Source: Amoebophrya sp. A120
Lineage: Eukaryota; Protista; Dinoflagellata
Reading direction: 5' to 3'
Length of the DNA: 64,000 nt
Assembly: GCA_905178155.1 (NCBI GenBank)
Contig: CAJINV010000002.1
Coordinates: forward strand, 8,699,224 to 8,763,223
The position numbers and the translations under genes are program-made. This document shows positions 5,001 to 50,904 of this stretch, piece by piece (within the stretch, counting starts at the first letter, position 1; each line of letters starts with the position of its first letter). The notes under the pieces are model-generated. The model saw only the letters and a program-made list of their open reading frames with translations, had not been told where the DNA came from and ran no database searches.

Positions 5001-8000
5001 CCGTTTTGCTGTTCGACTGGGGGCTGCTGATTTTTGCGAGATCGTCGTCGTCCACGAGTAGTTCTTCTCGTTGCAACACTCCATTAGCTGTAATGGCCGC
5101 TAAATGACGGTTAGAAGTACCAGGGCCCCTCCTGTCCGGAGGGGCGAGCCCTTGTAGTTCCTGTTCGTCTTCGCTGTTGGGTGGCATGATCCTATTGCTT
5201 TTGCTTCCCGGTCGGAGGTCAGTGGTGTTTTCTTGTCGGTGAAAGAACTGCTCTAGGTACAGCATGGTGTCCGCCACCGAGACTGACTTCATGTCCTCAT
5301 CTGTAGCACTGCCCGTCATCTGTTTACTGATATCGTCCTCTTCCTCAACAGGGGAATTGAACAACATACCATCAGTGTTGTACTTCTCCAGCTGTCCCGC
5401 AACCTCGTTCAGAAACGAGTTTTCCGCTCGTGTTTGATGCGACAGCGGATTCATTGCTTGCGCGCCAACATCCGACACTGTCAATATTGGAGCAGCTCCT
5501 TCGTGACCACGGTGAAGAGAATCTTCCGGCCGAGACAGTGCCAAACTAGCAGCGCCGTCATCTTCTACTTCCCTCAAGGCCTCCGCCCCAACTTGCTGCT
5601 GTGCTGCGAAGAATCTACTGCGAAGAAGCCCTCCTCCGCCGACCTTGCCTGTCCTCCCATCGTTCATGTTGCTTGATGCGTCGCCGACTGGACTCCATTC
5701 GGGCGTCCTGGGTGGCACGAGGGGTTCGTTTCCGCGGCTCGTAACCTCTGCTGCTGCCGATGACGAGGTCCTAATATCGGCACCGCTGTCCTTGGACGAC
5801 GAGAGTTGTAGAGTCTTGGGAATGTTGATGCTCAAAGAAGTGGAGGAAGAGTTCATGATTTCTGCCACGAGCTGCTCCGTTGTCTTCGATTTTCGCTTTT
5901 CAAATTCCCGGTCGTAAACGGTGCCTAACGCCAACTCGTTGTTGCTGTTGAAGAGATCGTAACTATCTCCTACACAATCACCAAACTGTTTCTGCGCAGG
6001 ATTTGGAGGCTGCAGGCGGTTTTCCGCACTGTTTCTTTGGAGGAAAAGCGCGCTCGCCACAGGGTTCGGATTGGTGGTCGGGGAAGCACCAAAAGGAATC
6101 AGCTCTTGCGGATCATCATCATCTTCTTGCTGCGAAAACGACTCGGCCTGCTGCTGCTCGTCGCCAAGGACTTTAGATTGTAGTTCTTCTTCCAAATTAA
6201 CTGGTGCAATCTCCAGACCAGCTCCCCTGCGACGATGCCCTCCAGGTCGTGCAGCAGTAATTTTCTCAAGCTTTCCCTTCGTTGCATCGTCGCGCTTTCG
6301 CTTTCCTCGCGTACGATGTTTCTTCGCCGCGAAGTCGGCGAGTTCCAGGTCCTTCAAGTTTTTCGTCTGACTTAGCAGTCGTAGTGGCTGAGACGAGACC
6401 TGATGAGAAGATATTCTTCTACTACCCCCCTGCGCCGGCGGGGACGGTTTGTAAATGAACTGCTCGTCGTCTGGTTCGTCTGTGTGCACAAATTCATCCT
6501 CGTTGTCAGCATGGTCGCGAAGCTGCGCAGCACGAGAACTACTCGCCTCCTCGCTGGTTGACGAAGCGATCTTATTCAGTGGAGCTGCGCTTCGTGTTCT
6601 CTGGTTCGTGTGGGATTCGTCCGGAAGTACTTCTTGCGGCTCTAGCGCGTCAACATTCTGTGTTTGACTGTCATACACCGCCAGCAAATCGTGCGACATG
6701 GTTCCTACAGCAGGAGGAACACGGTCCTCGTCCTGGTCTTCGGCCCCGGCGGGAATAGCTCTACTTGGTTGGTAGAAGTTTCTTTCATCAACATTCTCTG
6801 CCTCGCCGTCGGAGGCCGAAAAAACGTTCATTTCCGCCAAAACAGACGCGATGTTCTGAGACGCCTCGAAAATACGCTCGGGACTCTGTTCAATGTTCAT
6901 TTCTAGTTCAACAGCAGATGAACGAGTGACATCATTCGGTCGATCATCCCCATTGTGATTACCATCAGGTCCCGGGCACGGCAGCTGAATGACGCCAGCG
7001 GGAGAGCAGGACCCGCCGAGCGGCGACCAGATCGGCGTAGAAATAAAGATGTTGTCGTTGTAGCTCGTGGCGTACAGGGGTACGGGTGAGTTTGCTGCAG
7101 ATGATGTTGGACGTTGTTGACCCTGTAGTTGCTGCGCTGATCCGGCGTGCTGGTGCGGAGAAGTAGTGTCATATTGCTTCATATGCGCCGCGCTATCCCC
7201 TTCTGTTCCGGATTGGTACGTTGAAGTGATCAGGCTTACTATCGGAGGTTCTTCTTGCACCATCGTCGTCCCGGCCACGGCAGTGCCAGCAGGTTCCACG
7301 TGGGGCGAGTTCATGCGCGATTCGCTGGATTTGGTCTCGCTGAAGAACGACTTCACGATGTTTTTCGCTTCTTCGAGAATCTCAATCATGTCGTTTATGA
7401 CGTTCTCAAATGCTACACTCTCAAGTGTTCTTGCATGAGCAAAATTCCAACCAAAATCGTAATCGACACGATCAAGCTACTCCGCATGACAAATCCTCGC
7501 AAGGCCAAACAGGCTGAGAATCCGTGCCAAGTCTGTCATGCAAGACGCGCAAAGTGAGCCCTTCACTTTTGCCATTCGTGCGCCACAGATTCATGCAACA
7601 GCTGAGAATGTAACAGTTGAGAGCGCCATATCGTTGTCGTTGAATTTCTGCGACGACGAAATCTCGTCGCGCAGAAAGTCAACGGAAAAAGAATCCAGAT
7701 TTTCCATCACCCGAGAAAAGAAGCAGTCCCCTTCGGTCTCATACGCACTGGAGAGCATCCTCTTCACGGTGGACGAGACGTTGGAGGTCGGCGAAGTCGC
7801 GTCGATGTTGTGCAGACCGGCCCCGGCGAAGTGTTCTTGCAGCCAGGAGTCTGCGTCATAATTTTTGTTGAGCTGGTAGTATTGCAGATTCATTCTTTCG
7901 TCCGTGTGCTGCATATCGTTTTCGACGTAGAAATCATGACGAAAGTCATTCACCTGCAGATCGACCAACTGTTCCGCTGCGGTGGGCGATCTTATCGTGT

Positions 8001-25500: not shown

Positions 25501-28500
25501 TCGACGTGCACGACCGTCATGCGCTCCCTGCCGCGGAGGAGGTTGTTCTGGATCTATTTGATGAGACAAAAGATTGTACGGTCCCTGTTCATAGGGATAG
25601 GCATAGTCGTCCTCCAGCGTCAAGTCGTCGTGTGCAGTGCCGGCTGCTGGTGGTACCATGCCTGGAACCTGGTTGTGGGGGGGCATCGTGTTGTGAAGAT
25701 CATTGTCCCACGCGTTTATGTCCCGAAACGCCAGGTCTATTGCTTCATTCCGGTCGTCCAAAGTCGCCCGATCGTGTTCTTGTCGTGAATGGTTGTAGTT
25801 CCTTGTGGCCCATGAGGATTCATTTCCGTTGTACAACGTGGCTGCAAGTTGCTGGAACTGGCTGGAAGTTACTGCACCCGACGTCCAAGCCGGAGGAGCA
25901 ACGCCCGGACGGTTATCGGGCGCTGCGTGCGAATAAGCTGGGACGCGGTGATCCCGCATGGACGATTTCAGGAACTGCTTCTGTGCGGTATGATCCTTGG
26001 CAAGCTGCACTAACAGTTCGTAGTCCAGGCCCTTGAAGCACAGCACCGCGGTGTGCAACTTCAGAACGTGATTAAATGTGCGGGGCACACCGCTGTTCTG
26101 CTTGTCGGTGTAGGTGATGGTCACAGTCGTGATCAACTTGTCCGGAGAACAGTATGGGATATTAGTGCTCGTGTCTGCCACTGCCTCGTCTGAAACATGG
26201 TTTTCCTCATCCGGGGGCTTCTTCATTGCGGTGGTGGCCGTTGTGTCGCCAGCAGCTTTGGCTGCCACGACATGGGTCAAGGAAGAAGATGACGAGGCTC
26301 CTGCCCCGGTAGCTTTAGCTGCGCGATTCTTTACTGATTGGTATCCGGGTACACCAGGTAGTACAAACCTGCTGGCTGAACCGGGAAGATTGTTTCCGCT
26401 AGTAGAAGCAGAAAAGCCAGTGGAGGTTTTGTCCGAAAAAAAGGAATCGTCTAGCGGCTTCTACCAAACGCAAAAATGTCTGGGTCTGGAAGATTGCGAG
26501 ATTTGTCATGCTTATCTGGCATGACAAAAAAGTTTGTGATGCGTGTCCAAGAAGATACCCTTTTGCCTGTCATGCAAAAACGCAGTTTCTCATGCGGAAA
26601 ACGCAACACAAAGAAGCGCAGATATTTCTCATGCTTGGCTGTGCATTACAGTGCATTCACTATTCCCAACACAGCATTACAAGTTTCCAGACCCAGACGT
26701 TTTTGCATCTGATAGCTTCGCGGATAGGACGATGTCTTTGATCTCGAAGCAGTCCTCCTTCCCGGGCCAAAATTTCATCCAGGGGCGCACTTCGCAGAAC
26801 TCGTGCTTCGTGGGATCCAGACAGTAGGACTGAAACTTGTTGAGCACCGCGGGCTTCGGCGCGTTTTCGTTGAACCGGATGTCGTTTTTATTCAGTTTCA
26901 GATCTTGCGGGATGTCGAACGTGGTCACTTCGCACACCAGTTTCTGCAAACAGCTTCCCGGAAACGCGTCGACCTCTTGGATCGCCTCGCAGAGGTCGAG
27001 GGTGAGCAAAAACGTTCCGTGGCCGCGATCCGCCGCCACTCGGCGCGGGCCCGCGCCGCCGAACCGCTGCTCTGACTTCGTGAAGTCCGCGAGCCGCTGG
27101 CTTAGAAACTCGTTTGGCGGCGGTTGATGGAATTCCGCGAGTCTTTTATTATCGTCTTCTTCACCCAAGTCGGCTTGCTTGGCGTTCTTCTTACTGAAGT
27201 CGCTTGTTCTTTGCACTTTCGGTTTTTCAGTTTCAATTTCGAGTTCGACTTGGTCTTGGTGACTGCAGGGCGGTATAGATTTGATAGCTGTACAAACATC
27301 ATCTACACCGGCCTGCTGCGAAAGATCAGTCCCTTTTACCTCTTTCACTTCTGCAGAAGACGTTCTTCCAGTACTTTCCTCCACGACCGTTCGCTTCGTT
27401 CTCTGCGAGTCGCTCTTTTGTTGCTCGTTTTCCTTCGCCCGCGCCAGTTCTTTCATCTCTTCGTCGTGGATAAACGGTGCCTTTTGCCCCGCGACCCGTT
27501 CTGCCTCCGCCAGCATTTCCTGTTTCTTTTTCTTGTTTTTCTCCATCTCGACCAGAAGTTTCTTGTTCTGGTAGAAATACTGATTCGCGCAGTCCAACTC
27601 CGTGTTCCTGGATGAAATCACCCGGAACGCGTATGCATTGCAAAAGTAATTGCAGTCATGCAGTACAAAGCTTTTATCTACTTTTTCTTAAGATGTAAAT
27701 CCGAATTATGACGAATTCCATTTCTCATGGTGGTAAAGAAATTGAAATCTGCATATATGCAGTTACGACTAGTACTAGGACGATACTTTTGCAAAGGATA
27801 ACGCGTGCCAAATGTTGATGCGCCCGTCCAGACCCCGATTCATACTGGCGGTGTCTCGCCGTTGGAAAAGCGACAAAGCATTATTTCTACTTGATGTTGC
27901 AAGCGGCGCGGAGGTGGTCAGGTTTTGGTTTATTTTTCCACTGTCATTGATACTGTTTGACGTTGCGCTTGCGGCATAATTAGTGTTCACAATATGATCA
28001 GGCTGGTCGTCCACACGAATATTGAAGCCAAACCTGGTCTTTGTTCCGTATGACAGTGCACAACTCCCACTCCCCCTCATTTGTCATGCTTAACAGACTG
28101 CGCAGCTAAAGCCCGGGGGGGTGCGGGGTCCGAGGGGTGCACTTCTAAGCACTGCCCGGAACACCCGAACATGCCCCGCGACCGGCACAGGACCAGCAAC
28201 ACAACTAGTAATCGTCGATCACAGTTTGTCGATCACGACGTAGCTGCGAAGCCGTCCATACGCCTGGCGCCCCAAGCCCAAACCCCCGAGGAAAGGCCTC
28301 GACCACAGAAGGACCAAATATGAGCTTACGGCACGATGAAGTGGGAGCGCCTGTCTATGGACCGGATGAGGGAGCCCCCGGCTGCGAAACTGCTGGCTGG
28401 TGGACGCTAACCTGCCGTAGGTGATAGACTCACTCCAAGAACGGTTTCCGTTTCAGCGGTCGCGAAGCCGAAGGGAACAGGATGCATGTAGAAGAGCACT

Positions 28501-30076
28501 GGGGACAGGAAAGGACGAAGCACGAGTGTGATGGGCATTGCTGGAGAAAAACACCCGGATGAGATCCCGACTGCGGGAAGTCGGAGCATGAGGAGCAGCA
28601 GCGGGAGATTATCGAAACCGGACAAGACAGCTGGGCAGGACTGCTTCTCGCAGGACGACAGAGACGGCGATCGGGAATCCGGATTAACGGAAAAGCTGAT
28701 GGCTATACAGAGAAGTACCGCCGCCAGAGGAGAAGTCTTCGAGACTATCGCAGCACTGGCACTCGCACCGAAAACCGAACGCGCTACAGGCGCGCCGCGC
28801 TCGTGCGTGATCACAACAGGGATCACTTGGCGGACAGACTCTACAGGAGTCTGCCTTGGTTTCCGGGAGTGACGCCGATATCGGGACGCCGGTGGGAGAG
28901 GTGGGGCCCACTGGTTGTCGCTAGCCGCTGCCGTCCCGGAAACCAGACACAACTGCAGGTGTGCCGCACTCGTGAGTGATCTCTACAGGGATCACTTGGC
29001 GCGTAGGCTCTACAGGAGCCTACCCTGGTTTCCGGGGGTGCTGGTTTTCTGGTTGGGAAGACCGTCCGTGCCTGGTCCCTGGATGCGTCGGCTCGACGGG
29101 CTCGTTTGCTGGCTGCCAGGAGGAGATCCAACGCTTCTACCTGAAAGGGTTATTTTTCGGGAAAGGCGGGCGGGGACGGAGTTATCCGCCCCCTAAGAAC
29201 AACAGCGAGACCCTCATTTGTCATGCAAAATACCCAATCCCCTGTTTTGCTTTTGCCTCTTGGCACTGATTGCATGACAAGTTCTGGCAGCCCAAATAGC
29301 ACTACACTCCAGCGCAAATTTCTCATGCAAAACCGGCATTCTTGCTGATGCTTGTATTGCCGTTCATGCTATTGCCGTGGATGAGGGGGAGGGGGAGTTG
29401 TGCACTGTCATATTCCGTACTCACCCGCGAGAAACTGGTATATGACCCGCAGCAAATCCTCGGGAAAGTGCATGGTAATGTACACGGACTTCGCGCTTGT
29501 GCCGGATTTGTTTGCCAAAAACTCGTCTTGGGCTTTCGTCGACAGCTTTTGAAATTCTCCCAACTCAAATTGCTTCCTCTTCTCAAAACACACACCCAGT
29601 GCGTTCACCGCCATGATATTCACCATCGCCGTGGCCTTCCACTGCATTTGGTTCAGCTTTTCTTCCTTAATCTTCGTCCTTTTCTTCTCGTAATCCAGCT
29701 CATTTTCCTTCATGGCCGCCTGGACTTGCGTTTGGTCCTCCTTGTTTGCTGGAGTAGAGGACGAAAGTAGCGCCCTTTGAAACTCGAGCAGTCCCTGCTT
29801 CTTCGTTTCAAAATCATTCTTCGCCTGGAAGTAGGCATTGGAGCAGCGGCGGCTGGCTTTCTTTTGCAGCAGGAGAACGGTCTTGCTGTAGGTTTGCGGG
29901 AAATTGTTGCGACGTTCTTGGTGTGGAATACCACTGTCGCTGTCATCAGAGGTGTCCTCCTCGGGCAAAAGAGGTATTATGGGAGCCACGACGTCTTGGG
30001 AAGGTTTCGTCTGAGAGGCTGCAGTGCTGGCGGCGGCTGCAGAAATGACTGGTGGGGTTCCCTGATCGTGTTGCAT
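22589..30076 (-). CDS. Hypothetical protein (~1800 aa) with F-box-like motif; 5 exons (3 introners + 1 GT-AG intron)
   Basis: In-frame junctions after excision: LAGEYG-TKTRFG (28049-29412), NIWHA-FRVISS (27632-27800), LSAK-PLDDSF (26462-26714); canonical intron 24277-24551 (GGAG|GTAAAA...ACACAG|AT). MHFPEDLLRVIYQFL resembles an F-box. Confidence 0.75.
26462..26714. mobile_element. TIR introner, family A (253 bp, TSD GCTTC)
   Basis: Left TACCAAACGCAAAAATGTCTGGGTCTGGAA vs right rc TATCAGATGCAAAAACGTCTGGGTCTGGAA; GCTTC at 26457-26461 and 26715-26719. Confidence 0.93.
27632..27800. mobile_element. TIR introner, family B (169 bp, TSD ACGCG)
   Basis: Left TATGCATTGCAAAAGTA vs right rc TATCCTTTGCAAAAGTA; ACGCG at 27627-27631 and 27801-27805; frame restored. 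Confidence 0.9.
28090..29210. mobile_element. Nested 1121-bp GC-rich non-coding insert with 16-bp flanking direct repeat (non-autonomous retroelement-like)
   Basis: CCCTCATTTGTCATGC at 28074-28089 and 29211-29226; removal leaves a typical-size 227-bp introner; no recognisable RT/transposase ORF, no TIR or poly(A) seen. Confidence 0.8.
28760..29040. repeat. Duplicated ~105-nt multi-hairpin module with C-TACAG-G loops
   Basis: Copies ~28760-28871 and ~28930-29040; hairpins at 28780-28794, 28807-28826, 28835-28853, 28975-28996, 29003-29023; closing stem 28935-28946/29025-29036. Confidence 0.8.
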
Positions 30077-30649
30077 CTTGTTCGTGTTTACGAGCAGCCA
30101 AAATGATTTGAAAATTGAAGCTGAAGTTTTTCCTGTTACTACTGAGACATGGACATTCACGAGATTGGATTCCGTATCATAGAGGAAGTGGCGATCATAG
30201 GAAGTGAGGTCCTGTTTGGGAGTCCATCGAAGGTAGGAGTCTTTGAAAACGTTCTAGAAGTTGTGCAACTCTGTGATGCTTTGCATCAGAAATGCGGCTT
30301 TACCGAAACTCAAGGCTTTTCTATGTTCAATATGCTGGCGGACTTTTTAGTTGTGCCACGACTTGCTCTTTGTTATCTTCAGGGCTGACAATCTGTTCTG
30401 GGTCTCATATACTGGCGCAAGGATCATTCAGAATCCGCTGCGTCAACCACAGAAATTGCTTTTTCTTTCGATGCTAGAGAACACATAAAGATCTTTCCAA
30501 AAGAGCGGAGAAAGAACTGCCGCTGGCTTTACATATTGACTAGCATAATTCATCTCAGTTTCACAGCTTTCAGCATGTCGCTCGGTCGCTTTCTTGAAAA
30601 TGACATCCAGTTGACTACAGGAGCAGGACTACAGAAGAAGCGGAGATTA

Positions 30650-38111: not shown

Positions 38112-41100
38112 TCAGTTGTACTGCTGATACGGGTTGTAGACCCCGCCGACACCGCCGCCCGCAGCAGCAGTCGACGGAGTGTTCCCGTTGCCCCACGCGT
38201 TGGCATTTCCCTGTTGGTGTTGCCCGCGCCAGTTGTTGCCCCCACCCACATATCAACTGTAAAAATGTCTGGGTCGGGAAGAATCCAACTTGTGTGTCAT
38301 GCTGATTTTGGATTCTAAAAAAATCTGTATTGCATGAGCAGCAAAGAGAGTCCAAAATTTGCTACACGGAAAGAGCATTTGTCATGCGGTATAGGCATCA
38401 GGAAGCCCTCACAAAATCTGTGATGCTAGGGCATGCATCACAGACATCAGGAGTCATGCAAAATGTGCATTACAAATCTCGCAATCTCCCAGACCCAGAC
38501 ATTTTTACATTTGATACCACATGCATGGGCTTCGTGCCGTACTTGGCCGCATAGACGGAAGAGTCGTAATCACTGAAGCCCGGCGCCGCGCCCGGAGCAC
38601 GGGAGAAATTGTTATTGGAGGAAGTAGTGTTCGGCGCTCCTGCAGACGGGTTGATATTATCCCCACCGTGGTTGTACAAAGAAGTCGTAATGTTCATGTT
38701 GCTCACCTGCTGCAGATTGTTTCCAGGAGTCGTGCCTGTGGAAGTACCGCGCCAGTTAGAGCCACTGTTGTTCTGCTGCTGACTCGTCAGAGCGGCCGAG
38801 TTCGCGGCGGCCCCGGCCGCGTTCAGTGCTGCAGCAGTAGTACCGGTTTGATTGCTCATGGTACTCGTGTTGTTGTTCATCGTCCCATCATTCTTGTTCA
38901 TCATCCCGCCCGAATTATTGTTTTTGTAGTGGTTGTGGTTTTTCATGTTCATCATCGACGAGGTATTGTAATAATTGTAGTTGGACTGAGAACTACCGTG
39001 CTTGTTGTTCCCATAGTTGAAGTTGTTGTAGGTGTTGTTCATTCCACCCTGATTCGCTCCCATCGTGGTCGTTCCGTATGCGCCGTATTGATGTTGGCCC
39101 ATCTTATTCATCCCGTACGAGGACCCGTGATGACCCCCGGCGGCACCGTACGCGGCCCCATGGTGACCACCACCAAGGCCCGCGGCCAAACCGCCCATTC
39201 CGTAGCCGCTCGCGTTCGACATGCCGTGGGTGTAAGCGCCGTGCCCGCCGTACCCAGCGTTAGCCCCGTTGTAGTCCTGGTTGCGCCGCTCGCACTTCCA
39301 GCACGGATCCTTATCGTAGCCCGTGGCGTGCAAATCCAGCTTCACCTGCTTGTCCTCCTGAACGAGAGACAAATTCTTCTCGGTCTTAAGTATGAAAGGA
39401 GAGAAGTGGAAGTACTTAATGTGTCTAGTCACTTTTATGTCTGCTTCAAAATGTTGCTGCTCTTCTTGCTGCATCTACTTCTACCGTGCTAAAAACCGCG
39501 ATCCTGCATCATGCTTGCTACATGTGAAGCATCAACATCAGCACACTGTAATAAGTAGATCAAATTCAAAAAAAAACGACTTTGTCTCATTGCTGCACAC
39601 GACCAGCAAGACAGACAGCACGAGGACAAACTCTCGATATTCTATTCTCCCTTCCTTTTCATACTCAATCCGCTCGTCGGGTGCAGGCCATTGGGCGACA
39701 ACTGCCAGCAATCCTGGACTACTTTGCCTGATAAAGTATTTGAGAGTTTCACACCTTTTTTCAAAGTGAGTGTATCCGTATGATCATACATGTAATGCGA
39801 AATAAACAGGAGAACATACTCACGCGGCTCTGTGATCATGCTGTTGCTGTAGCTGTAGTAACACTAACAGTATGGTCCACCCTGATAATAAAAAATCAAC
39901 TATGGTCATCTTTCTCAGTACTGAAGTTTTCCACGTCGTGCATGCCGAAGTACTGCGGGAACCCGTGCTTGGCGTGCAGCCCGTTCAATTCCAACAGCTT
40001 CAAGTGCCCCAGGCACCCGCGCAGGCCCTCGCACTCCAGGTTGTGCAGCTCGTTGAAGATCCTGGTCACGTTGCACCACTGGTGGAAAAGCTCCGGGATG
40101 GTTTTCTCGATGTCGGTGACGGGGCCGAAAGCGGATCCGGTGGCTATGGCATTCTCAAACGTTACATTCTCAACTGTTACCTGATTTGTGATGCAAAGTT
40201 ACCGTAAGCCACCACAGGATCAAGCTGCTTCGCATGACAAATTCCCGAAGCAGGGCTATACAGCATCTAAATCTGTGCGGAATTCGTAATGCTATAGGTG
40301 CAACCCTCTCCCTTTGGCTTTTGCTATTTTTGCATCGCAAATTCATGGAACAGTTGAGAGTGTAACAATTGAGAACGACATAGTGGTCGTTCCGATGTTC
40401 GAGTTAACGGACGACGCTTGGTCCCCGTTATTGGACCCCTCGTCCGACCCAGCGCTGCTGTTGGACCCCTGGTCCGACGTGGCGATCGCGCGGTTGATCA
40501 GGTTGGGCAGCAGGGTGCGCAGGTCGTAGTTGCCGGACGTGCACACCAGCAGCGGGTGCTCCACCTCGTCGCCGGCCTCTTCTTCCACCATCGCGGCGGT
40601 CTCCGATTTCAGCAAAAGCTCCTTATCGTCATCCTGACCCTTGTCCGAGCGCGGCGGGGTGGAACCAGTATCGAGGAGGACCTCAAGTTTGATGATGTTG
40701 GTTTATTGTTCCAGGCGAAATAAATCCAATTCACCTTTCATCCTGATGTTCATGTTGCACTACAGATTACATTTCTGCTCTCTCTGCAGTAAATCTTCCA
40801 TCACAAAGCCACATCCAGATGTGATGACATGATTGTTTTTCTCGTTCCAATCTGAATTAATACCTTGTCCTCGCCGGTGACCACGGGAATCTTCTGGGCC
40901 TTGCCATACAGACGAAAGCCAAAGCCTTTCAACCACGCGTCAAGCTCCACCAACATCTTCATCAGGGGAACCGTATGCATTTTTGCAAAACCCGTATCGC
41001 ACTAGTGTGAAGTGCATGCCAAATCTTTCCACAAGCAAAAATGGTTCAGCTCATCATGATGGAGATTCAGGCACTATCTAAGTAAGCGCATCTGTCATGC

Positions 41101-44100
41101 TGCAAGACAAGTACAACTGCACAAAACTGTAAGTACTCAGAGTCATGCTATGATGATGTTTTTGCACAGGATAAACCGCCTGCGGCACCGAAGCGCGATT
41201 TTTGGAACGGGGATTCAAGATCCAACGGTGGAAACGACCCAGTTCCTTGCCGCATCGATTAATCAGGATACCTTTAATGATAATTCGGTATGGTGGAAAC
41301 AAATGAATGCGAAGGTGGTACTAGCTTCCAGGTATTTTTCTTCTCGTGCTTTTTCCAGTGAAGCGGAACTTACAACAAGCAGAGAAAAAAGACTATACAG
41401 GGAAATTCCGTAATTCCATGCTTCGGAGAACCGTGCAAATCCAGAATCATCAACGCGTACTTGGAAGGCTTCCCGACCCGAGACATGAACTGCGTCTTCT
41501 GGCTCGCGAACCTGATTTCCATTTATCGAGTATCAAAATCAATGCAGCAATACAGGCTAATCCTAACCAATAAAGAATAAACAAGTTGTAAGTAAGCTAC
41601 GTATAAAGTGACGGAAGGCACAACATATCATGCCAGTCCTCCTCGAGAGCATGCAATCTTGCAAACTCCTAAAGCCCCCTAAGCAACATGGCAACATCCA
41701 ATAAATCATCTTCTTGCAACAGAAGATTATCATACCGCACGCCCAACTGGTCTTGCACCTGGCGTTTCAAATTCATGTCGTCCGGTTTCAGCCACTGGGC
41801 CCGCACCCACTCCGCGTGCTCCACGTCGTGACTCAGAGTGCACCACCGGTACGCACAGCAGCCGGAGTTAAAGTAGGGACAGGGGGTCATCTTCGCGGGC
41901 CCGTTCGATTCCTTGAACTCCTTGTCCTTGGAAATCATATGGATTGTAAAAATGTCTGGGTCTGGAAACTTGTGATGCTGGGTGGCGTATCACGAGGAGG
42001 CCACAAGTGCTGGCTCAGCATGACAAGCTTCTGAGCTTCTAGGTGTTGCCTACTCTGCATGACAAACAGCGTTTCTGCATGACAGAAAATTGGGGCTCTT
42101 GGGTAATGTGCATGACAAATTTACGAGTCATGTGAGACAAGCATGACAAACTTGCATTCTTCCAGACCCAGACATTTTTACAGTTGATAAATCAGGACCT
42201 TGTACGAGGTGTGAAACGGGTGTTGCTGGTGGTGGTTGCCGTGGTGCATGCCACCCGCGGCGCCACCCCTATCCTGTGCAAAAGTATCGTAGTCGTACTA
42301 ATTGCAAACATGCATGACAAATCTCCTTCCTAAAGTAAAACAGCATTACAAATTCCACTTTTCTTCTTGCCAAAATTTGTGATGCAATTTATACTAGTCC
42401 GATATTTTTGCAATGCATAACCCCCAGCGGAAAACAACGAGTATTTCGACGCCACGTCTCCCGCCCCGGCAGCCCCCGCGAGCGCGTGGTGCAGCAACTG
42501 CTGCTGCGCCGCGTGCAGCTGCAGGTGCTTCAGCTGCGCGGCGGCCAGGTGCTGCTGGTTCAGCTGCTGCGCAAAGTTGTTCATGGTAGTTTGGTGGTGC
42601 GCCGCCTGCTGTAATTGTTGTCCCCCGGTGGCCGTACCCGTGAGGTTACTGGCCGGACCACCTCCGGTCGTGGTCGTAGCAGCCGGACCATTTGTCGCAC
42701 CACGGGCGTGATTTCCACCGGAATTCGCGACGGCAGACGCGGGGCACCGCTTCATCTTCAGCGGGGAGATCGTCAGATACTCGTCGTCATCTTCAGGCTT
42801 GATGGTGCTTCCAGTGGAAGTCACGTTGTTCAACAGCTCATCGTTGGAAGAGATTTTGTCGAAGATGCTCTGCGCGGAAGTCTTGTCTTCCACCAGCACG
42901 CCGCAATCCACCACGACATTCGGCGCACCGCTTTGCGGCTATGCGTTGCAAAATAATCGAGTTCTAGAATACTTTGAAACTACTGCAAGCCTAGAATACA
43001 AATGTTTTCTGCTCATATCAAAAAGTGCAATGTGACATGCTAGATCAGCTAGAGCATTTAGATTCGTAAACATGCACGATGATAATTGCAAGAAGACTCA
43101 GTACAATTACGTCGATACTTTTGCGCATGATAGCATCTGCGAGGAGGAAATTTCCGGCGAGTAGCTGACCGTCGGCGAGTCCGCAGTATCAAATGCAAAT
43201 ATGTCTTAGTCTGGAATAAAGCTCTAATGGTAGCCTGCGACTGATGCGCGCACTGCAGTACGCAGCCAAGCATGCCAAGTTTTCTTTGCGCTGGTATGCG
43301 TTGCGTATTTTGCATGGCAGACTTCATGTTTGATCCATGACAGTTATTGATCCAAGTAGATCATGACCAGCATGACAGATCTTGCGATCTTCCCGACTTG
43401 GACCTATTTGCACCGGTGGATACGCACCCTCGATCTGCAACTGGTCTTCCTGGTAGGAGCTAGTGGTCACGGAATTCGAAGCATTGGTTTTCGCGGAGGT
43501 CGACGCCTTGGAGTAGTTTTTGGTCGGAACTGTAGCACCTCCCGCGGTACCAGCATTGCCAGTGGCCGCGCCGTGTTGGGGCAACAGTGGCACCGGCGGC
43601 TCGTATCCGCTGCTGATCAGGGGGTTCGCCGGCGTCGCCGGCGGGTACACGGTGGAATCGTAGCCCGTCACGGAGTGTTGGTCGTAGGGAGAACCACTCG
43701 CACAACTGCCCGGGTAGGCTTGCTGCAAAAATTGCTGCAGTTGCTGGGGGTCCTGCTGCAGTAAGTGCTCCATGCCGCCGGTGGACGCCGTACGGGTCGG
43801 GTCCGAGGGGTCCACAACTCCCTGCATCATGTTCGCCAGAAAATTGTCCTGAGCAAGGTTGCCTTGTGGTCCACCCGACAAACCCGCCGCGTTCGGAAAT
43901 CCAGCGGCCATCATGCTGCTCTGCGCGGCCGCGGCGGCAGCCGCAGCGTCCAGCGAAGCGTTGCCCGTCGACGCACCAAAACCGGTTGCAGCCGCCGCGG
44001 CCCCGGCTCCCGCCGCCGCACCGCCGGCCAGCAGGGCCGGGTTCATCATCCGCAACTGGTTCAACCGCATCAACTGCAGCTGCAAATACGGCGGTAACTG

Positions 44101-45344: not shown

Positions 45345-48073
45345 TCAAAACAGTCGCCACACCGAGTCTCTCGACTGTCGTCGCTTGAATTTGTAGTAGA
45401 GCTCGCAGGGGCGACGTAGAACTAAGACCACTGCAAGCCAAATCAACACCAAAACCCACCGGGGCCAATGGAGCTCGACATCCGGTTGTGGCTTGGGATT
45501 CGCGTAGAAAGCTAGGCTGTCGGATATTGTCTCTTGCTGAAGGAGGGCCTGCTCATTGGTGGAAACGCTTTCGTCGTGTCCGATTAGCATGCTAGAACTT
45601 CTGCTTGCGTTGATGTTGATATTTCCTGCTAATACTTCCAGTAAGTACTTCTGATGCCGCTTTTTGTAGACGTACACCTTCGCACCCGTCGCTAAAACTC
45701 CGAGTAACATGTAGTGGAACACGTAGAAGAACAGGGGCACGGACCCGAAACAGAAGAGAAAGGTGGTCAACTCCGCCTTGCACTGCTTGAAGATTTGCCT
45801 CTCCTCGAGGCAAAACCGCCCAAAATTTCCCAGGATGTGAGTGATGAGGTGCAGCACGTTCGTGAAGGACTTCAGCAAGCATTTGGGGAAAAAGCACCAG
45901 CGGCTGCCGATGGACACGTGATCGAGTTCTTCTTGCCCTGTTGACGTGGCTCCTCCTGCCGTGTAGAAATTATCGTTGTATATCTCGTCGTTCTGGTAGT
46001 AGTTGTTCGCATCCAGATGGTCCCCCGTCCTGACATGCAAGTCGTCCGTCACCGCGACAACTTCAACACTTTGCAGATTGGTATTGTTTCTTTGTGCGTC
46101 CACCACACCAGAAGGCTGCCGAGCTTCCGCCTGTCCGGTCATGACGAGGTGCTCCCTGGCGTCGAGAAACGGCATTCGATTGGCTGATGACGCGGTTGAG
46201 GAGACGACCGAGTCCAGTGTCAGTTGCTGCGATTCGTTCCCGGAAGATGTTGAACTGGAAGAGTTGCTAGAAGAGGTCGTTGTATCGAGCACATTCTGTG
46301 GCTGTTTTCTCCTCTTTTCCACTTGGTGCTTCCCGCTGTCGTAGCAAAACAGCCACCACAAAACGAAATTCACCCCTGCAGTGAACAACAAATACGCCAG
46401 ATCCGGCGGGTATTTGCAGAACGTGAACATGCCGCGGAAGGGACTGTCGTACTCCCCGCGCGGGTAGCCGCGAAAGTTGAAGTACTTCTCCAAATCCCAC
46501 AACTCCGCTTTCTCACTCCCGAAAATTTGTTTCACAATCGCGTTGATCCGGAATCTGACGAAGAAAAAAACGGTCAGCAGCTGTAGTCCGATGATCGCGA
46601 GCAGGGATTCCAGGTAGAAAAACCGCCCGCTGCCGCTCGCGTTCGTATTTCGGCTGCTCCGCCCGTTCCGGAGGATGCGCAGCGAGGTTTGGCTGGAGCT
46701 GCTGGTGCCGACGTAGGTGTCGTTGCTGGCCGTGTCAAAGTAGATGCCCAGGAACTTCTTCTGTTGAAAAAGCACGCCGATACACATCCCGAGAAACACC
46801 AACGAAACCCAGGGGAACAGCGGGTACGCGACGACGCCGAAGCTCGTGCGCCCGGGGAGTACCAGAAACCGCAACAAAATCTCCTGAAACGTCTCCGCCG
46901 GGTAGAACGCCTTGGGCCACGCCGAGTCTCCGTCGCTCGGGTTGCCGTTTTGCGCCTCCACGATGAGGTAAGAGGAGGTGGCGAGCACGGAGACCGCGAG
47001 GAGAACCATCAGCAAAACGCCCGCTTTTGTCCCGTTCTTGTTCGTCCCCGTCGCGACCAGGGGCGCGAACAAGCCGGCGAGCATCATGGACAAGCCCAGG
47101 CCGACCAGCACCTGCCAAATGCCGATGAGCGGGAACCACTTCAGCTATCAAATGTAAAAGTGTCTGGGTCTGGAAGAGTCATGCTGTTTTTGCATGACAA
47201 AGAAGGTCTGGCATGGAAGCTCTAGCATAACAGGTTTCGAGAGGCTTCCGCAATGCCGAACCCGCATGCCAAATCCCCCATTTTGGTGACACAAAGTGGG
47301 CAGCTTTTGCTACCTTTGCATGAGAGATTTTTCTGTGTTCTAAAATGCGCATCACAAGTTGTTCGGATCCTTCGCGACCCAGACATTTTTGCAGTCCATA
47401 TCAGCAGGACCGGGTCAATGTTCGGGCCGAAAGGCGAGGGGATGTCGCGCACACCGAGTACGTAGTAGAAAACCCACATGTATCCCGCCTCGCAGATGTT
47501 GATCAACCGGCCGCACAGGATGAGAATCAGGCCGCGAATCAAAAAGTATTTCCGCACATACCCCTCCATGGTATTCACGGCAAAGTCCGGCATCGTGCCC
47601 CGCTCCAGCGTGCTCTTCGTCCACAGAAACATGCCGATGCCCATGGTCAAGAAAAACCCCGGGGCGCAGACGTGAGAGACAAACCGGCAGAAAAACTCGA
47701 CGCGGCTGTGGTCGTAGGTTTTGAACTTCCCGCTCCACATCTCGCCACCGGCGTCCTCCGTGTGCTTCGTGAGCAAAAATTCCTGCGTGTGGTCCCAGGC
47801 CATCAATAACATGATCAAGCCGCGAAACACGTCCATGGACCAAATGCGAGCCGTTGAGGAACGCTCGGCGGTGGTGGAGGTGCGGGTGAGAAAAAATGGA
47901 GGCGCTTGTGGCTGTTGCGTCGGTGCACCAGGCAGCAGGGACGAGGGTGCTGGTGGGGTAGCTTGTTCCGTATCGGTCGGAAGAGCTTGTTGTGTAGGAG
48001 TGATGCGCGTGCTTCCGGCATCGATAGGGGTACTAGCGGCCCTACCATCTCCACTGCGGTTCTGCGAGTTCAT
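45345..48073 (-). CDS. DUF1624/HGSNAT-catalytic-like multi-pass membrane acyltransferase (~822 aa), 2 exons
   Basis: RIWSMDVFRGLIMLLMAWDH, RFVSHVCAPGFFLTMGIG, YPLFPW, KYPPDLAY, FGSVPLFFYVFH; exons joined by excising 47146-47400 (DPVLL-KWFPLIGIWQVL). Confidence 0.85.
47146..47400. mobile_element. TIR introner, family A (255 bp, TSD TCAGC)
   Basis: TATCAAATGTAAAAGTGTCTGGGTCTGGAAG / rc TATGGACTGCAAAAATGTCTGGGTCGCGAAG; TCAGC at 47141-47145 and 47401-47405. Confidence 0.93.
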
Positions 48074-50904
48074 TTTAGTCAAGATGACGATTGATGTCGG
48101 TGATCTTTAGGACTAGATAATTATTATCATACTTTCTTCACTTGAGATAAGAGAGGCTATGGGCTCGGACATGAGAAGTTCTCCAGGTTGCGGGAGGCAC
48201 AACCAGTAAGAGACAAAAGTTCGGGCAGTTTGGAAGCACGCGGTTTTACTTCTCGAACTAAATACGGGTAGCATTCAACATTTTCTTCGCTTCTTTTTTT
48301 AGAATTGGGGGCTGTTCTGCGTTGCGACGTCACAACGCGGCGGTTGGAAACTTCTCAGCTTCAAGTAGAACAGACGAAGATAATAAATCCGATACTGACC
48401 TCTTAACTCACAGACACAGGCTGACGCTGATGTGGCCGCTTACATATAGCACCGGCTCTCGTCTCGTGCTCATCGGTCCCCAAAGTCATACATATAGAAG
48501 TTGGATCGCAATAAATCGCTCGACAGAGTTTTGCCTTGTACTAGTTGACCTCGCTCGGCAGAGAGAAAAAGAACGCCGACACGCACGGCGGTCGGGTTCT
48601 TCTTGCTGTGAAAATCTACTTTCACGGAACATACAAATCACTACACTCGTGTTAGTATTGCAGAACTGCATCGCGCTTGTGTGCCGTCTTTGGAACAAAA
48701 TTTCACAAAATGTGGCAGAGGACACGATGCGGATGCCCAAACCACAATGCCACACATGAAGAACATCATCACGGCCAGCTCTTTAATTTGCCAATACCGA
48801 TGTGGACCCAACGAAAGGCCGCGCCCTCTTCTGGTAATATGGACGTCTACTTCACTTCTCTGCTTTCATTTCTTGCCGAGGCGGGGCCATGCAGTCCCTG
48901 TTCAATCATCCGGTTTGTGCTAGAGGAAGTCGAAGATCGATACCCCTTAGCTCCGTTCTCTTTTTCATCATACTTAAGCGTATGCGTATGACAGCAGTAT
49001 CCGTTAGTACTCTGCTAGTCGAGCAGTTGTTCTCTATTCGGACGGACGAGTAACTACTTCTCGGCTTGTTGTACTACAGTCGAACCCTACTCCTCTGAAA
49101 ACGGAGCGTGAGGCTCGATCTTCAAATGTATCTTGATTTTTACACAGGGCTCGGGTGTCGTCGAGGTTGTTTCGAAAATTGGTGCAAACAAGACAGCATG
49201 CGTACGGACCTTGAAAACTAGAAATCGTGGACATTCATCTTTATCTTTGGTGTTTAGGGGTCTTTTACTAAAAGAAAAAAGAACCAAACAGAAAAAGACG
49301 TATATTATCATATTTTTTTTTCCTCATTGGGTTACTGCCACATCACACACACATACTCACGTTCCTTTCCGAAATATTACATTCGTAGAGTACATTGTTC
49401 CCGCCGTACTTAACAGATCATGACTTCTACCTAGGTAACATGCGAAGTGTCAATTTCTAATATTTTTCTACAAGTACACTTTCGAGACAAGAATCAAGAT
49501 GCTCGTGAAATTGACGTTGTAACGGAAATATTTGGAACAAGAAGAACGCTTTTTGTGCACATCTTTCGTAAGTCTAAGTTTGTTCGTCGTTCGTACTTGC
49601 ATTTTTCCGTGAAACCGAGAGATAGTGGCAGAGCTGAGTTTGCGTGACATGAAATATGAAATAAACCTAAAAGAAGTGAGAGTTACATCATTAGCAAAGG
49701 TCCGTCCTTGTAGAGCTCATTGCAACAAGTCAAAAGCCATGCATAGACTCGACGTCCCTCACACTAGAAGACGATAATCGAACTTCTTTTCTGCCTTACT
49801 GCAGGGCGCACAAATATTATTGGGGGATATCTAACTAAATCGTTTACCTTTTCGGTTGTTTTCCGTTGTGCATCTAGTCGGCAACTGCCACGACCTCCCG
49901 GGATAAACTAGACAAAAGTCGCTCTTGTTCCCTGCGTCATTCTTCACATTCGCACCCCGTCGCGGCGTACCTCGCGGCGCCCGGCGAAGGAGAAAATGCA
50001 AACACAACATCAGATATACAAAAGTCATTTTTTTTGCACAGGACTACAACGTCAAGATCTTGTGGCCCTACATCACGTGTACGTTCCTTGCTTCATTCAA
50101 CGCCGCGGCTTACGCGTTGGATACCAAATACCTACAACGAAACGGAACGGCTCTAGTCAAGTTGACAGAAATGACCTGTATTGGCTTTATCAGAAACGAA
50201 AAATCAATCAACTGTTTTGATTTTGGATTCAGAAATTTGATTGTAGTAAATTCATAGCTTTATTTTCGAAGTAAAAGTTGTCAGAAGTATGAGTATCGTA
50301 TCACAAACAGAATTCGCGAGAAGCTGCCAACGCGTCTTGGCCGCTTGGAGTAAAGTGTCAAACTAGTATCAGAAGCAAAAGTAATCAGTTTTTCGTGCCC
50401 ATTGTACTTGTTATATATGATTTGTATCTAATGAAGTGATCTTTTTATTTTTGTACATGATAATGTTGAAAAAGACAAGCGCCACCCTGGATGACTGCTC
50501 GTGTGGTGTGCGTTCCGCTGAGAAAACACAAAGAATTTAAGAATGAAACATCTGCAAAAATCGAAGAAAGGTTCTTTTTGGACACCAAATCCAGTCGCTT
50601 CAAAAAGAACTGTGTTCTCGATTCCAGCAGGCTGAGTGTCGAAAATGCAGAAAAACTTTTCGAATACCAAATGAGCAACAACTTTTAAAATGGAAAACGC
50701 AACTAATGTTGAGACGTCTAGCAAAACTTCCGTGCGCCAGCACTCATTTCTAGCTAGAGCCCCTTGCTATGTTCTTTATCAGTTTCAGTATATGTAAGTA
50801 GAACTAGAAGTAGAAGTGGCATATTTCTACAATTTTCATTACAGTCAAAGTCAATTCTTTGTTTCATATGAGTTTTCACGAGGCCCCGTCGTCGGTTCTT
50901 AACA

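Follow-up and report, generated by a model that had tools for sequence, protein, structure and literature searches.

Retroelements that prefer one site within abundant non-autonomous DNA transposons have been described before, and the closest known systems are Tx1 (Tx1L) of Xenopus laevis, which inserts in Tx1D, the crocodilian Tx1-Mar and SINEU elements, which insert in Mariner-N4_AMi, and Tx1-9_AMi, which inserts in Harbinger families (Kojima 2015, PMC4494074, available sections). In those sections the Tx1 clade is described as animal, the duplication made by SINEU-3 is 16 bp long, the non-autonomous members depend on an autonomous partner, and the targets, one transposon family or its close relatives, are nowhere presented as introns. 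We analysed a stretch of 64,000 nucleotides of the dinoflagellate Amoebophrya sp. A120 (contig CAJINV010000002.1, positions 8,699,224 to 8,763,223, hereafter the window), in which an introner, a transposon-derived intron of a protein-coding gene, contains a non-coding insert of 1121 bp at 28090-29210. We consider it highly probable that this insert is a copy of a family found at the 11-mer ATTTGTCATGC inside introners, and that the family is a site-specific, target-primed retroposon of the type without long terminal repeats (LTR), with minus-strand sense and a 3' end at 28090.

The element is like Tx1 and SINEU in being a retroelement that prefers one site in abundant non-autonomous DNA transposons, and since it works like Tx1 in Tx1D or Tx1-Mar and SINEU in Mariner-N4_AMi, its homing to a DNA transposon has precedent among retroposons. 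Unlike in these systems, the target here is a short motif present in introner families that otherwise show no detectable similarity and are removed from coding mRNA by splicing; no head derived from a small nuclear RNA (snRNA) or tRNA, no poly(A) and no apurinic/apyrimidinic endonuclease (APE) protein were seen. Since it offers no protein, no RNA-gene head and no poly(A), the element cannot be filed in Tx1, in a restriction-like endonuclease (RLE) clade or among the short interspersed elements (SINEs). With R1/R2 and Utopia it has in common a base-precise 3' junction and a truncated, variable 5' junction with microhomology or extra bases, and duplications of 14-20 bp are reported in R1 and reptile Utopia (available text of PMC2718515 and PMC4640811). 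The targets given there are ribosomal RNA or U2 snRNA genes, which are inactivated by the insertion, whereas here they are dispersed introners in protein-coding genes; unlike in R1/R2 and Utopia, no open reading frame (ORF) or 5' ribozyme was found here.

The architecture announced by the first-pass annotation of this DNA, an exact 16-bp repeat around a GC-rich insert, is confirmed as real and is not an artefact. Indeed, the sequence CCCTCATTTGTCATGC occurs as an exact direct repeat at 28074-28089 and 29211-29226, and the chance expectation for such a 16-bp pair is about 2e-4 in 1364 random bases. The first copy, which ends in the target motif ATTTGTCATGC, would be the target-site duplication at the fixed end of the element, and the second the duplication at its variable end, where position 29210 is either a truncation point or the 5' end. 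The GC content of the insert is about 56-61%, against 48-50% in the flanks. The host is a terminal inverted repeat (TIR) introner at 28049-29412, with arms at 28049-28080 and 29381-29412 (32 nt each, 97% complementary) and, outside them, a 5-bp direct repeat at 28044-28048 and 29413-29417. Removing the insert and one repeat copy in silico leaves the 227-bp introner that had been predicted, which aligns with other copies of its family at 73-83%. It matches the introners of Amoebophrya A25 and A120 as characterised in the accessible text of Farhat et al. 2021 (PMC7789003), with a TIR starting TAT, a 5-bp direct repeat, non-canonical ends and a length of about 230 bp; according to the same text, only introns of 40-1000 bp were kept in that study.

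Evidence on other copies comes from assembled contigs of public sequencing runs (labelled X1 to X8) and from four loci found by pattern (L001-L004, on contigs JACKZZ010011804.1 and those ending in 6421.1, 16178.1 and 13805.1, not counted as independent species). The terminus CTGTTAA directly abuts the target in all five fully read copies, with no poly(A) or simple-repeat tail, and the end at 28090 is common to copies of 11, 31, 83, 96, about 25, about 62, about 515 and 1121 bp. At L001, L002, L003 and L004, the element measures 96, 31, 83 and 11 bp and the maximal direct repeats around it 18, 17, 18 and 18 bp, every repeat having ATTTGTCATGC at its end and local host sequence in the remainder; the duplicated sequence thus varies by site, from 16 bp in the window up to 17 or 18 bp at these loci. 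At the variable end, L002 and L004 have 4 and 3 bases common to element and target (microhomology), and L001 and L003 a short slipped duplication of element sequence. The hosts of these four copies fall into three unrelated introner families, whose empty lengths are 140, 306 and 225-233 bp; L002 sits at a different motif copy of the same introner family as the window copy. Two further short copies lie in that same host family; in these, 28101 and 28142 are connected to 29211 across 13 and 9 letters. Finally, one RNA contig runs over 28110-28285, continues with 256 other letters that replace 270, and resumes over 28556-28618 before passing into ATCCAATTTGTCATGC, and a second RNA contig carries the same letters before the fixed end (X3 records 19 and 20); if these contigs are rightly paired, they represent a copy of about 515 bp with a 16-17-bp duplication at another locus.

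The region best represented among the copies is the terminal one, 28090-28285 on the minus strand, which has no poly(A) tail and a summed depth about 15-30 times that of a single copy. Over 28105-28221 the summed depth is about 480-810 in run X1 (199 at 28206-28208) and 640-1430 in run X2, against 31 and 43 in the body; summed depth is not strictly copy number, and we read it as roughly 15-30 copies of the element end. It is down to about three-fold at 28295 and single over 28420-29199 apart from 28556-28618, and about 800 of the 1121 bp are single-copy at 80% identity, while contigs with loose ends indicate that other copies continue beyond 28285 as related, diverged sequence. The exception at 28556-28618 is a 63-bp island, conserved with 5 differences in the second, otherwise diverged copy of about 515 bp that ends there (X3 record 20, X4 record 27), and it has extra depth in X1 and X2. 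Since only part of the insert is repeated, it may correspond to a truncated 3' portion of some longer coding element and not to a complete non-autonomous one. Element-internal patterns gave no match in viral_contigs or genome_contigs. The stretch 8000-8100 of L001 carries minority alleles of the window copy (28105 G, 28153 T), a hint of subfamilies and not of one decaying master.

The target was characterised through the 10-mer TTTGTCATGC. It has 12 exact sites in the window, in four introner types, so that the earlier statement of a motif recurring in all introner families stands for these types and not for every introner: the exact form is absent from those at 27626-27799 and 43187-43343, which both carry looser TCATGC forms. 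Over 111 kb, TTTGTCATGC is the most frequent 10-mer, with 37 sites against a permutation mean of 0.29; five of these sites are duplicates created by insertions, 27 lie inside automatically called TIR elements (7% of the DNA) and none lies within coding cores (46% of the 111 kb). Even in these enriched loci, the 11-mer ATTTGTCATGC has a rate of 1.2e-4 per strand-position. Introner families whose TIRs differ have this internal motif in common, as TTTGTCATGC and its variants TTTGTGATGC, TTTCTCATGC and TTTGTAATGC, with three to six loose copies per element in both orientations; it is carried by the introners at 7396-7641, 26462-26707, 38250-38516, 40145-40391, 41945-42189, 42270-42420 and 47146-47401 and by those of L001-L004. 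It is possibly a common transposase or splicing-factor site, and the searched text of PMC7789003 does not mention it.

A less biased count of targeting was obtained from the contigs of run X1 matched by element sequence, with a query pattern that does not include the motif (56 records). Among the matches listed, the motif is kept at seven of the eight junctions at other loci: one match starts from 28071, four are loose-ended at 28079 and two are the short copies, read at their duplication. The RNA contigs begin at 28070, 28077, 28078 and 28079. No variant at a 5% share is listed for 28069-28103 in run X1, and the flanks diverge beyond 28079. Together with the occurrence in three unrelated introner families, the seven junctions support the proposed homing to the introner motif TTTGTCATGC. 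The shelter that a spliced-out introner would offer may be the reason for this targeting.

The geometry of the junctions names the minus strand as the RNA, and the test of RNA sense by covariation, made on two copies of one domain, favours the same strand. This domain of about 102 nt, made of a closing stem and three hairpins with CUG(U/C) in their loops, is present on the minus strand at 28767-28867 and again at 28935-29036. All 35 of its pairs hold between the two copies (27 unchanged, 4 with two-sided compensatory changes and 4 with one-sided G-U/G-C changes), against 5 broken when the same pairs are read on the plus strand. When the same 20 substitutions were placed randomly, four two-sided pairs were reached in 10 of 1000 trials and the energy in 2 of 1000; the covariation is modest evidence, because the structure was derived from the same two sequences. 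The folding z-scores of the terminal region are -2.5 and -2.3 on the minus strand against -1.8 and -0.5 on the plus strand, and the terminal 225 bp fold better on minus. For a candidate third domain copy near 28150-28262, 222 and 60 of 500 shuffles score equally, so that it lacks significance. The six hairpin loops within 28767-29036, CUG(U/C) on the minus strand, read (T/A/G)CAGG on the plus strand and there resemble the 3' splice-site consensus.

As the first-pass annotation had noted, the insert contains no credible ORF. None of the three insert peptides scanned has a Pfam match. The best frame, plus frame 0, is weakly positive in codon scoring (0.02-0.11 over 28090-28810), yet it has three stops there; no homolog was found for it at 143-455 amino acids, nor for its 126-residue open part among 1.84 billion representatives. 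The window copy has no ORF with the reverse transcriptase (RT) and endonuclease of an autonomous non-LTR element of an RLE or APE clade, and no RT or OTU domain was detected in the 28 ORFs scanned out of the 38 listed for L001-L004. No ribozyme was recovered in Rfam even at an expectation value (E) of 1, the single Rfam match (E 0.55) lying far under its cut-off; a descriptor of ribozymes like that of hepatitis delta virus gave no match, and a hammerhead descriptor gave one, non-canonical. Likewise, no SINE-type head (tRNA, 5S, 7SL, snRNA) was found by ARAGORN (no match) or by Rfam (the same sub-threshold match). On the plus strand, motifs of the form CGGATGA...GAAAC (28556-28618 and about 28362-28402) resemble the hammerhead core, with G at position 4 and without stems I and III; that at 28556-28618 is conserved between diverged copies, one of which terminates exactly there.

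The host gene lies on the minus strand and encodes a protein of no known family. Its upstream coding exon (29413-30253, an open frame) is separated from the next (27800-28043) by a non-canonical intron of 1369 nt, 28044-29412, and a second intron follows at 27626-27799. The joint of the long intron slides by 7 bases, which gives eight equivalent registers, none of them GT-AG or AT-AC. Removal of both introns gives one minus-strand frame that stays open for 677 residues between stops. Contig X3-9 of run X3 (5634 nt, depth 76) joins 28043 to 29413 and also does not contain the second intron, and because two introns are lost it is taken as spliced RNA; the expectation that the 1369-nt intron is still removed is therefore borne out, exactly 28044-29412 being missing. 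The RNA nature of run X3 is a guess by the software, and assembled contigs give no splicing efficiency. No 28043/29413 joint was seen in the DNA-like run X1. The single-copy insert body is present in run X3 too (28254-28770 and 28865-29232, 0 differences, depth 6-8), and a contig of run X1 covers 28253-29240 with 0 differences at a depth of 30.7, with flanks at 25.5 and 27.4. Since the insert body is present in X3 and the depths of body and flanks are alike in X1, the sample most likely carries the filled allele. Run X8, an estuary metatranscriptome, has the same exon joint on one 256-nt contig and nothing of the insert, and is uninformative on the filled allele. The copies with a readable host gene are all co-oriented with it (5/5), which is not significant (p 0.05-0.27), since 56-65% of the available sites have that orientation.

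Considering the fixed end, the variable truncated end and the host-derived duplications of 16-18 bp, the mode of insertion that the first-pass annotation had put forward, target-primed reverse transcription, is supported. In such a scheme, an endonuclease/RT supplied by a putative partner would nick the plus strand between 28089 and 28090, directly 3' of TTTGTCATGC. The partner RT would then copy the element RNA from its 3' end (28090 in minus-strand sense, no poly(A)), reverse transcription would often end early, with microhomology or slippage at the variable end, and a second nick 16-18 bp away would produce the duplication. As the motif occurs only in introners and an insertion duplicates it instead of destroying it, the insertions would normally be spliced out.

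Several points count against this scheme. No RT or endonuclease is tied to the element in the window copy or in the scanned ORFs of L001-L004, and the tail of poly(A) or simple repeats that is common, if not universal, in non-LTR retroposons is missing. The part at 28420-29199 is single-copy at 80% identity except for the 63-bp island, so no close master copy is visible, and the depth profile has the form of a plateau and a step, not of a smooth slope. In one RNA contig (X3 record 18) the repeat at the far end is no more than degenerate, and no contig spans the whole insertion. As regards targeting, TGC is all that is matched of the motif at one of the eight junctions (X1 record 3, identical to X2 record 12), where the sequence continues for 2551 letters; beyond the matches listed there are 38 loose-end rows and 104 piece rows; and L001-L004, because they were found by a motif-containing pattern, show duplication and truncation and not the frequency of targeting.

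The same target-primed route could be driven by a Penelope-like element (GIY-YIG or endonuclease-less) instead of an RLE or APE non-LTR element. The missing poly(A), the internal partial duplication and the two hammerhead-like UGA...GAAA motifs, one of which is the conserved island 28556-28618, would all suit such an element. These motifs, however, have G at core position 4 and are found on the complement of the strand inferred to be the RNA; inspection shows no stems I and III that match, Rfam is ribozyme-negative, no inverted tail-to-tail copy occurs among the copies read, and RLE or Tx1/R1 elements are the more typical users of an 11-bp target (see also the available part of PMC4640811). 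We therefore regard a Penelope-like driver as unlikely. A plus-strand RNA whose 5' end is fixed and whose variable 3' ends are primed internally, as in tailless retrocopies, is very unlikely. The folding energy of the whole insert favours that orientation (-457 kcal/mol on plus against -437 kcal/mol on minus), as does the middle part, which is purine-rich and better folded on plus; against this, it is at the fixed end that the junction is base-precise and sequence-specific, the variable end is the one that carries slipped duplications and extra bases, and the G-U pairs of the duplicated domain hold on the minus strand only.

We give very little credence to an absence of true targeting, in which insertion would be broad and only the copies in introners would survive selection. 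The genome is gene-dense, and one junction among the matches listed does not have the full motif, as this reading would allow; the same last motif base is nevertheless abutted in three unrelated families and at two motif copies of one family, which contradicts it, because selection for splicing-out cannot fix a junction to one base. The first-pass annotation had also offered, as an alternative, the duplication of an att core by a tyrosine recombinase integrating a circle. An 11-bp core at both ends of every complete copy and the lack of poly(A) agree with this idea, but the repeats reach 5-7 bp past the core into host-specific sequence that differs among sites and varies in length, and truncation occurs at many points on one side only, so that we hold such a mechanism to be extremely improbable. 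Nor do the copies have the combination of a fixed core repeat, two fixed ends and no host duplication that marks tyrosine-recombinase elements such as Crypton and DIRS. As for a misassembly, the left junction is broken by repeats and, as said, the insertion is not spanned whole; the error-free X1 contig over 28253-29240 with its flank-like depth, X3 record 14 (28865-29399), which crosses the right junction, and the same architecture at other loci leave this possibility next to no weight.

With the target-primed retroposon as the preferred explanation, its place among published data on introners can be considered. In the available text of Gozashti et al. 2025 (PMC12130899), A120 introner family 9 is a TIR class of about 278 bp with 2231 copies and a 23.8-kb-wide alignment, and supplementary file 8 of that paper lists for it a match to OTU (PF02338) alongside four to RT (PF00078). 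These matches would fit RT-coding insertions nested in TIR introners, and in the material available there is no sequence link between them and the element. The alignments of the short A120 TIR families 2, 3, 6, 9, 16 and 21 are 4-24 kb wide there, with LTR, long interspersed nuclear element (LINE) or RT matches. Nested, site-specific insertions are not described in the text available for that paper, in which the word 'nested' has 0 matches; that of PMC7789003 contains neither 'nested', 'subterminal' or 'internal motif' nor CATGC, and figures S4 and S19-S25 of that paper may be relevant to the motif and to non-LTR content. Among the titles and abstract openings of the literature covered, to which Repbase and most subscription papers do not belong, nothing was found on a retroposon targeting introners or a motif common to spliced-out introners.

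A bolder version of the retroposon explanation is conceivable, and we think it rather doubtful. In it, the element would be a hyperparasite that cycles wholly through introners: promoterless, it would be transcribed with the host gene and released as an excised non-canonical intron, its RT-endonuclease would read a motif that unrelated introner families need for transposition or splicing, and the duplication would keep the intron working. The RT-endonuclease would then perhaps be the OTU-RT of A120 introner family 9. The co-orientation of all five copies with their host genes fits this version, though it is not significant.

Elsewhere in the window, a weak RNase PH-like match (E 0.095) is found at 156-1253 on the minus strand, and a gene with an HGSNAT catalytic domain (45345-48106, minus strand) is split by the introner 47146-47401. 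The gene stretch 47225-48106 on the minus strand is 100% identical, over 77% of its length, to a protein attributed to Amoebophrya sp. A120. Twenty of the 25 open frames of at least 250 codons are on the minus strand, several of them having about 2000 codons without an intron.

For site-specific retroposons, the family would represent a new class of target, a short motif common to many transposon-derived introns, and an endonuclease recognising 11 bp would be of potential use in insertion tools. The introner motif offers thousands of dispersed intragenic sites where insertion should be silent. Nested RT-coding copies could explain some of the retroelement labels attached to TIR introner families. 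The insertion also points to a conserved internal introner motif, unmentioned in the available text of the Amoebophrya introner papers. Finally, the exact excision of this introner, which a structured, GC-rich insert has extended to six times its empty length, bears on how Amoebophrya splices introns without canonical ends; such excision is what one would expect of a cut defined by the ends.

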